From Dictyostelium discoideum (taxonomy: Eukaryota), in contig CM000153.2 of the NCBI GenBank assembly GCA_000004695.1, forward strand, positions 5,024,001-5,088,000: DNA of 64,000 nucleotides, given 5' to 3'. The notes under the pieces were generated by a model. The model worked only from the letters and a program-made list of their open reading frames with translations. It was not told where the DNA came from and searched no databases. Shown here in pieces: positions 39,512 through 45,942 of this stretch; position 1 is the stretch's first letter; the number at the start of each line of letters is the position of its first letter. A program made the position numbers and the translations under genes.

Positions 39512-42500
39512 ATGTATTCAGGATTATGGACTAAAAATGGAGAACAAATACTTCCATCATTTATATCGATCAATGCCAAAGTTGTAGATTTGGCAGCACA
39601 AATCGTCTTTACCAAGACCTATTCAGACATTAACAAGTATTTCGCCACAATGAACAAAATGAACAGTAGCAACGAAGAGGATGCAACCTTTAAAGCATTT
39701 TTAAATACATCCATGGGTGTATTATGTGGTTTCGAAATCAATCTCGATGGTAAGAAGATCACATCCCAAGTCGTTAGTCAAGCCGATGCAATGAGATTGT
39801 TTGAAAAGAATCAAATCAGTACTGCCGATGATATCGTCAAGGAAGCCGAGTTCAACAATTCCGATCCACACATTGAAGAGGATTTCTTTCTCTGTAAAGT
39901 TAATAACCTCTCTCAATATAAGGAGCTAGAAATTATTATCACTTACTCCACTGAAATGTCAACCCAAGGTGACTATCTTTTTATGGAATTCCCAACTTCT
40001 CTAACTACAATTAGATCAAGTCAATTCTTTGAAACTTTAGATAATGAAAATAGTACAACAAATACAAATACACAAACTCAACCACAATCTGTAAATACAA
40101 CCACCACAACAACACCATCAACAACCACAGCCACAAATATAACAAATATAAATAATAATATACAAAATATAGGATCATCAACAACAGGTGGTTTAACACA
40201 TTCAACATCATCTAATAAATTATCATTATCATCATCATCAATTCAAGTTAATCAAAAACAAGGTTTATTGATTGAGATGAATTTAGATATGCCATCAAAA
40301 ATCTCCGAAATTATTTCACCATCACATTCAGGTTTGATTGATGTCGAGTACAAAGGAGAGACTGGTAAGGTAACATATAAAGATTCACGTTCTATCGATG
40401 TCGTTAATCAATCTGATTTGGTTGTATTGATTAAATTGGATAACCCACATGAACCATATGGTTTCATTGAAGAGAATGAAAATGGTAGCCGTGCTCTTAT
40501 GATTGCTTTCTATCCTCAATTATCCTCTGCCGCTATTGCCGCCTCTGCCACTACACCTGTCGTTGAAAGTGAATTAATCTTTTTAGTTGATGTCTCAGAG
40601 TCAATGGAAGGTTATAATATGAAACATGCAAAGAAAGCACTCCATCGTTTCCTTCATTCCCTTTCAAAGGATACCTATTTCAATATCATTAGTTTTGCTT
40701 CATCTCATCGTAAATTGTTTGCTCAATCTGTCAAATACAATGATGAAAACCTTAAAGCTGCCACTGCCTACGTAGAATCACTCAAAGCCATTAGCCATGG
40801 TGAAACTAATCTCTTGGAGCCATTAAAAGATATCTACTCTGTTGATGCAACTTGTCCAAGAAAAATATTCCTCTTAACTGATGGTCGTGTTAATAATATT
40901 GGTCCAATCGTTGATTTAGTTCGTCAAAATGCTCATAATACTTCAGTTTTCCCAATTGGTATGGGTGAATTCGTTTCACGTCAACTTGTAAGTTTTTTTT
41001 TTTTTTTTTTTTCGTTTTTTTTTTTTTTTTCTCTCTCTTCTTTTATTCTCTTTTTATAAAAAAAATATCTTTTGTGAACTTGGACAAAAATAATTAACAT
41101 CTCGGTTTTTTTTTTTTTTTTTTTTTTTTTTTCTTTTTTCTCTCTCTTCTTTTATTCTCTTTTTATAAAAAAAAATAGGTTGAATATATTGCAAATGCAG
41201 GATCAGGTGTTGCAGAATTAGTAATTGAAAATGAAACCATTGAAAGTAAAGTTATGCGTCAATTAAAGAGAGCATTACAACCAGCAATGTCAAATATTAA
41301 AGTTGATTGGGGATCATTATCAAGTAAGAGTCAAGCACCAAGAGATTTACGTACATTGTTTTTCGGTGATCGTTTAACTATTTATAACATTCTTGGAAAA
41401 GATGAAAAGATCGATGGTACTACCGTTAAATTAATTGCAAATGGTCCAACCGGTCCAGTATCTTTCCCAGTTACCATAAAGAGTGAAGAGACTAAAAAGG
41501 GTAATCTCGTTCATAGTTTAGCTGCCTATACATTAATTCAAGATCTTCAAGATCAAATCTATGAAAATAATTTAGTTGATCCAAAGGATATTGATCCAAT
41601 TCGTCAAAAAATCATTGATCTTGGTATTAAATATGGTTTAGCTTCAAATTATACTTCTTTTTGCTCTGTTGAACAACCTGATCAATTTAATGAATTATTA
41701 AATAACAATAAACAATCAGAACAAGCACAAGAAACAACAACCACCACCACCACCGCAACCACAGTTGATGATAATGTAGTTATTGAAGAGAATAAACAAC
41801 CAGAACCAATTGTAGAGGAACAACCACCAGTTTTAAATGGCAATATTAATTTACAAAATTTAACAATCAATCATGATGGTAAATCAAATGATAATGGTTT
41901 GTTCAAATCAAACGATAGACTTAAAACTCATCATCAAGGTGAAAGCGCTATGATTTCATTGAGAGGTTCTGCTAGTGGTATCCCAACTACTTTATCTGGT
42001 AGTGGTATTCCATTCTATAATCCATCTTCACCAAATCATGATCGTAATATCAATACTACTCAACAACCAACACCAACACAATCTACTCCATTAAAAACAC
42101 CATTAAAAACTCCACTCACTCCATTATCAAAATCTGGTCTTAAAGTTAGTTCACCAGAATTTGTACCAAAAAATACATTAAGTGCTAAAGCTGCTCCATT
42201 TGTTCCATCACCAAATAAATTACCAACTACAACAACTTCAGCTCCAGCAACAACTCCAATTACAACCCCAGCCCCAACTACTACTACTACTGAAGTTAAA
42301 CCAACTGTTGCAGAACCAGTTAAACCAGTTGTTGCAGAACCAACTAAACCAGTCGTCGCAGAACCAACTATACCAGCTGTCGCAGAACCAATTAAACCAG
42401 TTGTTACAGAACCAACAAAACCAGTTGTTGAAGAACCAGCAAAACCAGCTGTTAAACCAACACTTTTTGAAATGATTAAAATTGCTGAAGCTAAAGCTGC

Positions 42501-43269: not shown

Positions 43270-45942
43270 AACAACAACAACAACAACAACAACAATATTG
43301 TTTCCTCAACACCAATTAAAAAACCAGCAGTTACAAATATTTTACCAACTCAAGCAGTTATTTTATCATCAGGAGGACGTCGTGTTTACAATAATGATTT
43401 CTTATTATCATTTAAAGATTCAAATACTAAAGCACCAGATTCATTAAAAACCACACCAATCTTTTCAAATGGGCCACAAGGTATTAGCCCATCATCTGGA
43501 AATGGTTCAAACAAATCCCACTTTGGTAAGAAGAGAGGTGATCGTGGTGGTAGAGGTGGTAGAGATCGTAATGCCGATGCTGAACCATCAACTCCAATCA
43601 TTGTTAAGAAAGTTTTCTCTCAAGATGTTCAAGGTACTCATCAAGAATTATTAAAGAAATTCAAATTCAATCTTAATAGAATTACAATGGATACCTATAG
43701 TTCATTGATTAAAAATATCGATGAATTAAAAGTACCAGATGAAGAAGCACTCAAATCAATCTCAAAGATTCTCTTTGAGAAAGCAATTATTGATCAAAAA
43801 TATTCAGCCGTTTATGCAATTCTTGCAGGTCATTTAGATACAACTTTCCCAAAGTTTGCCGAACTTTCACTCAAACGTGCCATTCTCGATAATTGTCAAA
43901 CTGAATTTAGTGCCGTTGTTGATAAATCCAAATTTGAAGGTTTAAGTAAAGAAGATCTCGAAGAACAAGAATTCATCATAAAGAGAAGAGTTTTAGGTAA
44001 CATTAAATTCATTGGTGAGCTCTATAAACATGGTGTTCTCGGTGAAAAAGTTGCAAAAGCTATCGTTGTTCAATTGATCACCAAATGTGAAGAGAGATTA
44101 GACGAAGAATCCATTGAACCATTGGTTAAGATTCTCAACACTATTGGTAAGAAACTTGATGAAGTCGATAAGGCCAACACTGATTTATACTTTTCCAAAG
44201 TAACCAACATCTCAAATAATCCAGTAGTTACCTCTAGAGGTCGTTTCATTTTATTGGATCTTATTGATTTAAGAGCAAATAAATGGCAACCAAAGAATTC
44301 CACCCAAACAAAAACCAAAAAAGACGAATCAGACAAAGAAGAACGTTTCATTGCTAAACATGGTGGTCCACAAAAGAGAGAAAATGATTCACGTAGAGAT
44401 GGCGGTAGAGACTCAAGAGGTGATGATCGTAGAGGTGGCGGTGGTAGAGATTCAAGAGGTGATGATCGTAGAGGAGGTAGAGATTCAAGAGATGCACCAA
44501 GAAGTGCATTTGGTGGAAAGAGTAGTAAAGATGGTTGGGAGACCGTTGGAGCAAAGGGAGGTAATAATAGAGATAAAGGTGGACGTGGTGGTGATCGTAG
44601 CGGCGGCAAACAATCTCCAAGTGGTAAGAAAGATTCAGGTTTTGGTCCATCGTCAGGTGGTTCAAGCTTATTTGGTAGTAGAAGAGGTGATGATCGTAGA
44701 GATGGTGGTGGTAATTCATCACCATATCGTCCAGGTCAAGGATTTGGTAGAAAGGATGATCAATCATCATCAATTCCATCAATTCCAAATAGATCCAATG
44801 CATTCAGTGCTTTAGAGGATGATGATTATCAACCATCAACATCACCACAACCACCATCAGTATTTGGTAATCGTTCCAACGATAGAGACTCTCGTGGTCC
44901 ATCAAAACCAGATAATCGTAAACAACCAGCTCAACCACCAGCCCCAGTTGAACCAGTTAAACCAAAGATTAACTTTGAAAAGATTGAAGATGATATTTCA
45001 ATGACTTTGGATGAATATGCTGAAACCCAAGATATCGATGAAGCCATCGAATGTATAAAAGAAATTAACGAACCAACCGTTTTGGGTAAACAATTCAACA
45101 TTTTCATCATGAAATCATTGGAGAGAAAAGAAAAAGAGAAACAATTGATCATCGAATTGTTCAGTGGTATCTTAACAGCCCAATTATTCAATGCCGAGCA
45201 AATCAAAGAAGGCCTCAAAGAAATCATTGATACCATTGAAGATATTGAAATAGATCTTCCATTCTCTGGTGTATTCGTTGCAACAATCGTGGGTATTTGT
45301 ATAGAATCTGAAATATTCCCATTGAATTATTTAGAGGAAGCATACGCTCATTTGGTTGATAGTGATAAAGCTGAAGAGATGATTGTAAATACATTTAATT
45401 CCATCGTCAAAGTCTCTGATAAAGATCGTTTAGTCGAAATCTATGAAAATACCAAAGGTCTTGATATCTTGAAGTTATTCGCTCTCAAGAATAGAAAAGT
45501 TGCCTACTTGGAAGAATTCTATCAAACTCATTTCCCATACCTCTCTCATGAAAAAGCTGTCGAAGGTAGTAATGAATCAGCTTTGAATGAACAACCAGAT
45601 CTCATCGAACATCTCTTATTGTTACAATCTGCTGATGGTTATTGGCAATTGGATAAGAAATTGGCTGGTATTTTAGGTATCTCTTTAAATATTTTAGAAG
45701 AAGTCGATTCTAGTGACAGTTGTGTTATCACTACACACCCAGAGGTTTGGGCAACTTGTTTAGCTATTACCTTTGTCAATTTAAATAATGTATCTGATCC
45801 AGATGATGAAGATGATTTGGAATTAGTACTCAGTAAAAGTCATAAATGGTTGGCTTCTCAATATCAATCTGATAAACCACCAAAACAATCTCAAGATGAT
45901 GTTTTATTAAAAGCTAAAAGATTATTAAGTGAAGTTTTATAA
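39512..45942 (+). CDS. Large multidomain protein: VIT + vWA domains, PEVK-like Pro/Val/Glu/Lys repeats, eIF4G-type MIF4G domain, RGG/RGD-rich region, MA3 domain, and a VWA5A-like C-terminal region; join(39512..40987,41179..45942)
   Basis: Exon 1 has VIT-like N-terminal sequence and a vWA MIDAS-type motif LIFLVDVSESMEG...LLTDGRVNN. A GTAAGT donor follows ...VSRQL at 40988 and AG lies at 41177-78; exon 2 continues in frame as VEYIANAGSGV.... Exon 2 holds KPVVAEPTKPVVAEP and EQPKPVETKPV repeats. Its MIF4G-like block reads ...RRVLGNIKFIGELYKHGVLGEKVAKAIVVQLI...SRGRFILLDLIDLRANKW. The RGG block reads RGDDRRGGGGRDSRGDDRRGG. An MA3-like block follows (...EAIECIKEINEPTVLGKQFNIFIMKSLERKEKEKQLIIELFSGIL...). 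The tail reads QSADGYWQLDKKLAGILGI. Confidence 0.6.

Follow-up and report, generated by a model that had tools for sequence, protein, structure and literature searches.

A VIT-vWA protein with an eIF4G-like core and a MINT-like tail in Dictyostelium discoideum: a candidate additional eIF4G paralogue

Does a single protein of Dictyostelium discoideum join VIT and vWA domains to MIF4G and MA3 domains, and if so, what might such a protein do? The question is raised by a locus in a 64,000-nucleotide window (contig CM000153.2, positions 5,024,001 to 5,088,000 of the forward strand; all coordinates below are those of the window). The initial annotation described this locus as a domain combination unfamiliar from characterised proteins, while allowing for a fusion of two adjacent genes. 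The combination is indeed unfamiliar: a literature search found no paper describing a VIT-vWA module together with an eIF4G core.

One gene across the locus

Positions 39512-45942 (+) of D. discoideum AX4 are one genuine, conserved protein-coding gene. Reading of the ORF and the splice sites gives two exons and a 2079-aa product with 0 internal stops, with the following features:

39512-40987, +: exon 1 (aa 1-492), with the start codon, VIT and the N-terminal part of vWA (ORF and splice-site reading)
39563-39946, +: VIT domain, aa 18-145 (Pfam PF08487)
40571-41232, +: vWA domain, aa 354-510, split by the intron (Pfam VWA_3 and VWA)
40988-41178, +: single intron, 191 nt, GTAAGT...TAG, phase 0
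41179-45942, +: exon 2 (aa 493-2079 and the stop codon; ORF reading)
41233-41667, +: post-vWA conserved region, aa 511-655, with dense invariant columns, common to plain VIT-vWA proteins
41950-41988, +: invariant 13-residue linear motif MISLRGSASGIPT, aa 750-762
42139-42207, +: two PAM2-like motifs, LKVSSPEFVP (aa 813-822) and LSAKAAPFVP (aa 826-835), candidate PABP MLLE sites
42292-43296, +: low-complexity linker with PEVK-like KPVVAEP and EQPKPVETKPV repeats, an AAEQK repeat, Ala/Gln runs and poly-Asn (AAC x22)
43378-43407, +: basic YxxxxL-phi motif RRVYNNDFLL, aa 1226-1235, about 90 residues upstream of MIF4G, putatively of the eIF4E-binding type
43669-44283, +: MIF4G/HEAT-1, aa 1323-1527, including RRVLGNIKFIGELYK (Pfam)
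44365-44772, +: RG/RGG/RGD-rich disordered linker, aa 1555-1690 (composition count)
44986-45552, +: MA3/HEAT-2 (aa 1762-1871) with a helical extension to about aa 1950 (Pfam and PDB matches)
45598-45939, +: C-terminal MINT-like six-helix domain, aa 1966-2079, LQxADGxWxL...WATxLA...ELxxxKxxxWL

Unspliced, the ORF from the ATG at 39512 enters the intron and stops at 41059, whereas splicing from GTAAGT (40988) to TAG (41178) brings exon 1 in frame with the ORF ending at 45942, and the resulting junction, GEFVSRQL/VEYIANAGSG, agrees with the orthologue consensus. The single reading frame with one clean intron, as first proposed, is thus correct. The intron position is identical in the P. violaceum gene, and the N-terminus MYSGLWTKNGEQ is kept in all orthologues. 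As a separate observation, a stretch of 69 nt is directly duplicated within the intron (40997-41065 and 41106-41174).

The gene is real and uncharacterised. It is probably DDB_G0286969 / C7G046, an assignment based on the name, the neighbouring gene IDs and the length. In published proximity proteomics, 28 unique peptides were detected for the protein named DDB_G0286969, so that the product of the present gene has probably been seen at the protein level.

The same collinear architecture is found, in line with the orthologue check that had been suggested, in seven dictyostelid orthologues, from Polysphondylium, Cavenderia, Acytostelium, Heterostelium and two EukProt dictyostelids. The same four collinear blocks are present in a distant non-dictyostelid protein, P0169 (contig with 49% GC), in addition to a fragment, P0088. 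In two contigs from two samples of a relative (L001 and L002), the whole protein is a single ORF, and the two introns present in the related P. violaceum gene are missing. A fusion of neighbouring genes in the gene model was rejected on the basis of these orthologues, P0169 and the intron-less ORFs. L001 and L002 may be genomic contigs of a species that lost both introns.

Under the two-gene reading, adjacent VWA5A-like and eIF4G-like genes would be in frame by chance and would produce separate mRNAs, with a terminator and a promoter hidden in the long low-complexity linker (42.3-43.3 kb); the accession form of C7G046 in UniProt, which we take to hint at a revised gene model, could be read in its favour. 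The frame, however, is open across this fast-evolving linker in 8 dictyostelid species, P0169 and P0088, and L001 and L002 cover the entire ORF intron-free. In P0169, only a short linker separates the vWA region from the 4E motif, leaving no space for intergenic signals. Moreover, the MINT-like tail, the usual partner of VIT-vWA, sits downstream of the eIF4G part, so that the two halves of one ancestral type flank this part, an arrangement that a simple two-gene read-through would not give. The artefact is thus largely refuted already and we consider it highly improbable. The combination of VIT-vWA and eIF4G is old, conserved and probably expressed, and it is lineage-restricted.

Domains and motifs of the protein

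The initial domain calls are borne out by Pfam for vWA, MIF4G and MA3, and marginally so for VIT, which scores 23.0 bits in the full-length protein, under the GA of 26.5, and 29.4 bits, over this GA, when the N-terminal segment is scanned alone. The orthologues carry a precomputed PF08487 match, and the VIT domain of P0169 reaches 49.9 bits. The vWA domain scores 74.4 bits with Pfam VWA_3 (aa 354-505) and 48.7 bits with Pfam VWA. Its MIDAS residues are present (D360-x-S362-x-S364, T432 and D457), and the DxSxS motif is intact as originally noticed, D360, S362 and S364 being invariant, together with T456 and D457, in an alignment of 8 species; T432 is replaced by Ile in one orthologue (P0003). 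In a BLASTP comparison, aa 254-658 are 31% identical to the VWA5A-type protein P0090 (E=2e-49).

The label 'extracellular-type' that was attached to the VIT-vWA module is wrong, since PARP4 and VWA5A-type proteins, to which this module is closest among VIT-vWA proteins, are intracellular. No Pfam match to ITI_HC_C was obtained for the full protein or for separately scanned segments, and no hydrophobic signal sequence is seen by inspection at the N-terminus MYSGLWTKNGEQILPSF; neither the secretory signal peptide nor the C-terminal domain that characterise ITIH is apparent in the protein. The tail, correctly described as VWA5A-like, is homologous in a profile search to the C-termini of VIT-vWA proteins and to the PARP4 MINT, and accordingly the protein possesses the C-terminal MINT-type helical domain of VIT-vWA (VWA5A/PARP4-type) proteins.

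Judged by its sequence, the middle region is an eIF4G-like core. The MIF4G domain scores 97.6 bits with PF02854 (GA 30.8), its best PDB matches are eIF4G1, eIF4GII and DAP5, and its nearest non-dictyostelid relatives are named eIF4G. The MA3 domain scores 54.4-57.2 bits with PF02847 (GA 23.2) and matches eIF4G1, PDCD4 and DAP5 in the PDB, with the 3l6a alignment reaching about aa 1926. The region from MIF4G through MA3 forms one collinear alignment to human eIF4G1 (E=2.6e-46), and the RG-rich tract, present as described (6 RG, 3 RGG and 3 RGD by count), aligns at the place of the eIF4G1 inter-HEAT linker. The W2 domain (HEAT-3) is absent, the only candidate being a sub-threshold HEAT_5MP1_2 match that overlaps MA3 (19.7 vs 26.5 bits), and the MINT-like domain occupies the C-terminus in its place. 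W2 is not universal in eIF4G: it is confined to the metazoan factors, and the plant and yeast factors also lack it.

The first reading recognised MIF4G and MA3 but overlooked the YxxxxL-phi and PAM2-like motifs, whose presence makes the middle part an eIF4G-like core, more than two HEAT domains. The basic YxxxxL-phi motif (1 observed vs 0.01 expected) is conserved as KR.Y...[FY]L[LM] in 7 of the 8 dictyostelids, with W for Y in one; the counterpart in P0169 is KKTYTADFMQ, and there is one L-to-M change among the homologues. The top PDB match of the profile of this segment is the 4E-BP1 peptide on eIF4E (5bxv_B), at a non-significant E=0.27. The PAM2-like motifs (2 observed vs 0.06 expected per shuffle) match the consensus LNxxAxEFxP (PMC7356810) at L, the small residue, (E), F and P but not at N: in the dictyostelid copy, the consensus Asn is missing and Ser stands where the consensus has Ala. 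L813, P818, E819, F820 and P822 are invariant across species, P0169 has LNANSAAFVP at the equivalent place, and the Pfam PAM2 score (PF07145) is 11.8 bits (E=0.22), below the GA of 20.

The low-complexity linker differs in length and sequence among species while its frame stays open throughout, and it is nearly missing in P0169. The PEVK-like repeats reported between vWA and MIF4G are real: they are encoded by tandem DNA repeats, in units of 24/72 nt at 42297-42453 and of 36 nt at 42912-43121. The motif MISLRGSASGIPT is identical in 8/8 dictyostelid proteins inside an otherwise variable linker.

Possible function

The assignment of MIF4G and MA3 to the eIF4G type stands, but it missed that D. 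discoideum has a separate canonical eIF4G elsewhere in the genome (XP_643657.1 / Q553R3, GN=eif4g); the present gene is thus an extra paralogue and not the orthologue of the canonical factor. By analogy with eIF4G, we propose, with a probability of roughly 65%, that this paralogue builds an alternative cap complex resembling eIF4F, its eIF4G core occupying the linker of a PARP4/VWA5A-type protein. In this scheme, the core (PAM2-like motifs, YxxxxL-phi, MIF4G, RG-rich tract and MA3) would be held with the VIT-vWA head on one side and the MINT-like tail on the other; the YxxxxL-phi helix would bind eIF4E, MIF4G and MA3 would bind eIF4A, the PAM2-like motifs would bind the MLLE domain of PABP, and the RG-rich tract would contact RNA. 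The complex so put together on mRNA might then be docked to a partner or a large assembly by the vWA head, with its MIDAS, and by the MINT-like tail.

The same set of contacts could serve the opposite end, with the protein sequestering eIF4E, eIF4A and/or PABP in the manner of 4E-BP, PDCD4 and Paip2, or anchoring silent mRNPs, in competition with canonical eIF4G. The essential function is already covered by the canonical factor, the profile of the 4E-motif segment is nearest to 4E-BP1 and not to eIF4G, in PDCD4 it is MA3 that inhibits eIF4A, and the large extra domains and the linker of about 400 low-complexity residues are unlike known initiation factors. Nevertheless, the region from MIF4G to MA3 aligns best, and collinearly, with eIF4G1 rather than with PDCD4 or DAP5, and the order of PAM2-like motifs, 4E motif, MIF4G and MA3 mirrors a complete activator scaffold. 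A decoy or repressor appears unlikely to us; no feature of the sequence tells activation and repression apart.

One assembly to which the proposed cap complex might be docked is the vault. The human homologue of the MINT-like domain docks PARP4 inside vaults, and D. discoideum vaults have recently been observed to enclose 80S ribosomes. The MINT-like tail might bind the inside of the major-vault-protein shell as the PARP4 MINT does, through S1614, K1618, Q1682 and R1689, and bring an eIF4F-like mRNP or a ribosome adaptor into vaults, which would connect vaults at the molecular level with the ribosomes or mRNPs inside them. Against this, DDB_G0286969, whose identity with the present gene is inferred, is slightly depleted in MVPA-TurboID (log2FC -0.34, q=0.007), and the same data show enrichment of PARPs (+3.49) and of the TEP1 orthologue (+1.61). 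Furthermore, where PARP4 has a basic h4-h5 loop with the MVP contacts S1614 and K1618, the loop of the dictyostelid tail is acidic, and the MINT-like domain also occurs in a flagellar doublet protein of T. brucei and, in fungi, in tandem arrays with C2 domains, so that it is not vault-specific. Docking to vaults is, in our estimate, distinctly improbable. Equally doubtful is the broader conjecture that the VIT-vWA and MINT-like frame is an ancient docking cassette for vaults or another giant assembly, to which an eIF4F-like cap complex is tethered in dictyostelids and in one or more further protist lineages.

Cap-dependent translation has eIF4G as its central scaffold, and a paralogue of this factor, for instance DAP5, eIFiso4G or one of the trypanosomatid eIF4Gs, usually defines a specialised programme of translation. 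The paralogue proposed here would combine binding of the cap, of poly(A) and of the helicase with a metal-dependent adhesion domain and a MINT-like domain, and in D. discoideum it offers a candidate, accessible to genetics, for translation that is specialised or localised. Published eIF4G censuses count one in this organism, and paralogues named after other domains have been overlooked.

Relation to known families

Paip1 is a MIF4G-containing relative of eIF4G that binds the PABP MLLE domain through PAM2. It differs from the Dictyostelium protein in the lack of an eIF4E-binding motif, MA3, VIT-vWA and a MINT-like domain, and no specific sequence relationship between the two was detected, the top matches being eIF4G1/2/3. 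Paip1 is listed among the PAM2 proteins (PMC7356810). PARP4, whose C-terminal half is the part compared, has PARP catalytic and BRCT domains, for which the Dictyostelium protein gave no Pfam match at E<=0.1; the Dictyostelium protein contains the eIF4G core in the linker and does not conserve the MVP-contact loop. The VWA5A-type proteins (P0090, P0095, P0110 and P0163) share the VIT, vWA, post-vWA region and C-terminal tail domain, but are 760-1020 aa long with a short linker, in contrast to the approximately 1300 residues, including the eIF4G-like core, between the post-vWA region and the tail of the Dictyostelium protein. No signal peptide is obvious by eye in either, so both are presumably intracellular.

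A further comparison is with eIF4G itself. At the sequence level, the Dictyostelium protein has an eIF4G-type MIF4G, an MA3 domain that follows C-terminally via a disordered linker, and a YxxxxL-phi motif upstream. With eIF4G1/eIF4G3 and plant eIF4G/eIFiso4G, it shares this basic upstream motif, the RRxLGNIKFIGEL(F/Y)K segment within MIF4G, the Arg/Gly-rich linker and MA3, and with the plant factors, in addition, the combination of MIF4G and MA3 without W2. Animal and yeast eIF4G contact PABP via an N-terminal region that binds the PABP RRMs, whereas the candidate contact in the Dictyostelium protein is the PAM2-like motif. We know of no characterised eIF4G with a VIT-vWA or MINT-like domain; to the shared eIF4G architecture, the Dictyostelium protein adds both, the former at the N-terminus and the latter at the C-terminus.

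Gene model and domain organization

The frame that opens at the ATG at 39512 enters a T-rich intron, where the unspliced stop would fall at 41059. Removal of this 191-nt phase-0 intron (donor GTAAGT at 40988, acceptor TAG ending at 41178) yields a frame that closes at 45942 and encodes 2079 aa with 0 internal stops. This bears out the initial annotation, which described one frame with a single GTAAGT...AG intron linking VIT and vWA domains to MIF4G and MA3 domains. The splice junction (GEFVSRQL/VEYIANAGSG) agrees with the orthologue consensus, and the Polysphondylium violaceum gene has an intron at exactly the same position. 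The intron contains a 69-nt direct duplication (40997-41065 and 41106-41174, 96% identity, 109-nt spacing), with the TAG acceptor at the end of the second copy only. In the window, which is D. discoideum AX4 DNA, the gene is accompanied by the following genes and open reading frames:

11703-12863, minus strand: DDB_G0286893, actin-29
26966-33097, minus strand: 2043-aa ORF, upstream of the fusion gene
37049-38548: DDB_G0286911 (exact match), just upstream of the fusion gene
46335-46772, plus strand: Asn/Ile-rich ORF, downstream of the fusion gene
47097-49388, plus strand: second Asn/Ile-rich ORF, downstream of the fusion gene

The two Asn/Ile-rich ORFs may be exons of one gene.

Pfam domains of the 2079-aa protein (residues; score; gathering cutoff)
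VIT, full-length scan: 18-145; 23.0 bits; 26.5
VIT, isolated segment scanned: 18-145; 29.4 bits; 26.5
VWA_3: 354-505; 74.4 bits; 27
VWA: 355-510; 48.7 bits; 23.8
MIF4G: 1323-1527; 97.6 bits; 30.8
MA3: 1762-1871; 54.4 bits; 23.2

All the domains proposed from the initial reading are thus recovered above the cutoffs, with the reservation that VIT passes only when the segment is scanned in isolation and falls below in the full-length scan. The MIDAS of the vWA domain is intact, as proposed (D360, S362, S364, T432, D457); D360, S362, S364, T456 and D457 are invariant in an alignment of eight species, and T432 is replaced by Ile in P0003, a EukProt homologue. The PEVK-like linker noted between vWA and MIF4G consists of genuine tandem repeats at the DNA level, and the RG/RGG/RGD-rich tract is located between MIF4G and MA3. 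The resulting order is VIT, vWA, post-vWA region, linker, a central segment (PAM2-like motifs, 4E motif, MIF4G, RG-rich linker, MA3) and a tail similar to the MINT domain of PARP4. Within the variable linker, the 13-residue block MISLRGSASGIPT (window 41950-41988, aa 750-762) is invariant in 8/8 dictyostelid proteins, and a similar STMITSLGGSRSAVP was spotted by eye in P0090, a plain VIT-vWA protein; the block may serve as a site of phosphorylation or docking.

A single gene in dictyostelids and beyond

The initial annotation allowed that two adjacent genes might have been joined in the gene model. A full-length search identified seven proteins, each with vWA, MIF4G and MA3 on a single chain, from P. 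violaceum, Cavenderia fasciculata, Acytostelium subglobosum, Heterostelium album, two EukProt dictyostelids and one JGI contig. Their alignments to the window protein run its whole length, at 50-64% identity, with conserved folded parts and with linkers that differ in length and sequence yet remain in frame. The collinear architecture is therefore shared with other dictyostelids. P0169, a 1454-aa protein with VIT, vWA, MIF4G, MA3 and tail, was additionally detected when the tail was used as query in an exhaustive HMMER search. Four collinear blocks (26-33% identity) align it with the window protein, and its linker from vWA to the 4E motif is very short. P0169 is encoded without introns on a 4606-nt contig with 49% GC (L003; JGI 3300033523, Ga0314768_1001023). 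Given P0169 and P0088, a fragment of a similar protein, the fusion is found beyond the AT-rich dictyostelids, and it probably had a single origin.

P0001, a protein 73% identical to the window protein, is encoded by one uninterrupted ORF on two contigs from two samples (L001 and L002), whose DNA is 77-87% identical to the P. violaceum genomic gene and lacks both P. violaceum introns. This is the appearance expected of spliced mRNA, and it is the missing introns that point to a transcript origin; since no poly(A) tail is visible on either contig, the ends being T-runs, genomic copies that have lost the introns could account for the same pattern.

Judging from the domain order, the strongest architectural case for one gene is that the VIT-vWA and tail halves flank the eIF4G part on both sides, an arrangement not expected from read-through of two neighbours. 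Together with the seven one-chain orthologues, P0169 and the single-ORF contigs, this speaks against the two-gene alternative, and an annotation artefact is largely refuted. The fusion is real, and the initial interpretation was essentially right. In P0003, the gene model runs past the normal C-terminus into amine-oxidase/prenylcysteine-oxidase-like domains (residues ~1735-2188), probably a merged downstream gene.

An eIF4G-like core in a PARP4/VWA5A-type frame

When residues 1133-2079 were compared with PDB sequences, the best match was human eIF4G1 (8oz0, E=2.6e-46), in a single alignment that runs from MIF4G through the linker to MA3 and contains RRVLGNIKFIGELYK versus RRSLGNIKFIGELFK. It is followed by eIF4GII, DAP5, PDCD4 (MA3 only) and yeast eIF4G, and outside the dictyostelids the MIF4G segment has eIF4G proteins as its closest named homologues. 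A MIF4G/MA3 protein of the PDCD4, DAP5, CBP80 or NOM1 type was rejected, eIF4G1 being by far the best and the sole collinear match. A W2 domain was not found in the Pfam scan.

A basic motif of the eIF4E-binding type (YxxxxL-phi), RRVYNNDFLL, precedes MIF4G by about 90 residues. The orthologues keep it as KR.Y...[FY]L[LM], with Trp in place of Tyr in one of them, and P0169 has KKTYTADFMQ. When a profile of the segment was run against the whole PDB, the best match was the eIF4E-bound 4E-BP1 peptide; the alignment covers the motif, at an E-value of only 0.27. Further upstream are LKVSSPEFVP and LSAKAAPFVP, resembling the PAM2 consensus LNxxAxEFxP, in which Phe is the main determinant (PMC7356810). 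L813, P818, E819, F820 and P822 are invariant within a variable linker, and P0169 has LNANSAAFVP ~15 residues ahead of its 4E-type motif. Because the Pfam PAM2 score (11.8 bits) is below threshold, we term these motifs PAM2-like. With patterns defined post hoc, the PAM2-like pattern occurs 2 times versus 0.06 expected from shuffles, and the 4E pattern once versus 0.01. Taken as sequence evidence, these features identify the middle of the protein as an eIF4G-like core.

The last 114 residues match no Pfam family. A 7-sequence profile of this tail retrieved 756 proteins at E<=0.001; the matches sampled form three groups, VIT-vWA proteins of 764-1018 aa that carry the domain C-terminally (P0090, P0095, P0110, P0163), in line with the VWA5A-like tail of the initial annotation, the fusion proteins P0169 and P0088, and fungal proteins (Glomeromycota) in which it is repeated in tandem up to 11 times, in some cases alongside C2 domains. 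Tandem-copy proteins P0033, P0037, P0034 and P0039 are from Scutellospora and Gigaspora. A 33-sequence profile (A3) matches two solved chains, namely a T. brucei flagellar 'VWFA domain-containing protein' associated with doublet microtubules, matched at its C-terminus (9e5c, E=3e-4), and human PARP4 residues 1573-1644 (E=4e-4), which lie within the vault shell-binding MINT domain (1562-1724; PMC12280208). Other comparisons gave little: a word-indexed search with the 7-sequence profile returned only three short unnamed fragments, Foldseek alone found nothing significant, BLASTP of the tail against one mollusc PARP4-like protein gave no match, and hhalign against that protein gave a weak hit at a plausible position (E=0.023, probability 2%). 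A first AF2 model, built from the 7 tail sequences, had a pLDDT of 62 and was set aside. The tandem copies in Glomeromycota and the occurrence in T. brucei indicate that the MINT-like tail is a widespread domain without a matching Pfam model. The ends of the protein thus form a PARP4/VWA5A-type frame, the linker of which is filled by the eIF4G core. An ITIH-like secreted protein was also considered and rejected, as the ITIH C-terminal domain is missing and no signal peptide is seen by eye.

Paralogy and predicted function

The gene is probably DDB_G0286969 (UniProt C7G046), judging by its name, the numbering of neighbouring genes and the length of that protein, which we take to be 2079 aa. Neither the exact protein nor a near-identical D. 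discoideum copy was found by look-up and homology search in the protein collection, which does contain the neighbours DDB_G0286911 and DDB_G0286893 and other D. discoideum strain assemblies.

The best-supported reading, by analogy with the family, is an alternative eIF4F-type scaffold: eIF4E would bind the YxxxxL-phi helix, eIF4A would bind MIF4G and MA3, the MLLE domain of PABP might bind the PAM2-like motifs, and the RG-rich tract could be an RNA-binding site, with the MIDAS-containing vWA head and the MINT-like tail adding docking to some partner. A decoy or repressor is a rival possibility. Another rival, a vault-docked version of such a scaffold, is disfavoured. One study reports 80S ribosomes inside about 8% of D. 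discoideum vaults. In its MVPA-TurboID proximity labelling DDB_G0286969 had a log2 fold change of -0.34 (q=0.007), which argues against stable vault residence; the PARP Q54HY5 scored +3.49, the TEP1 orthologue +1.61 and canonical eIF4G -0.89. Likewise, the MVP contacts of PARP4, S1614 and K1618, sit on a basic h4-h5 loop (PMC12280208), in place of which the dictyostelid tail aligns an acidic loop.

For D. discoideum, a published survey of factors in mRNA metabolism includes a single eIF4G, XP_643657.1 (PMC5862402, Table C), and UniProt Q553R3 (GN=eif4g) is present in a proteome table. The window gene is therefore an additional eIF4G paralogue, overlooked by such censuses. We found no paper on the protein or its domain combination, consistent with the initial annotation, which knew of no characterised protein with this combination. 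The protein, a paralogue of eIF4G set in a frame that has no precedent, is unstudied and carries an uninformative name in databases.
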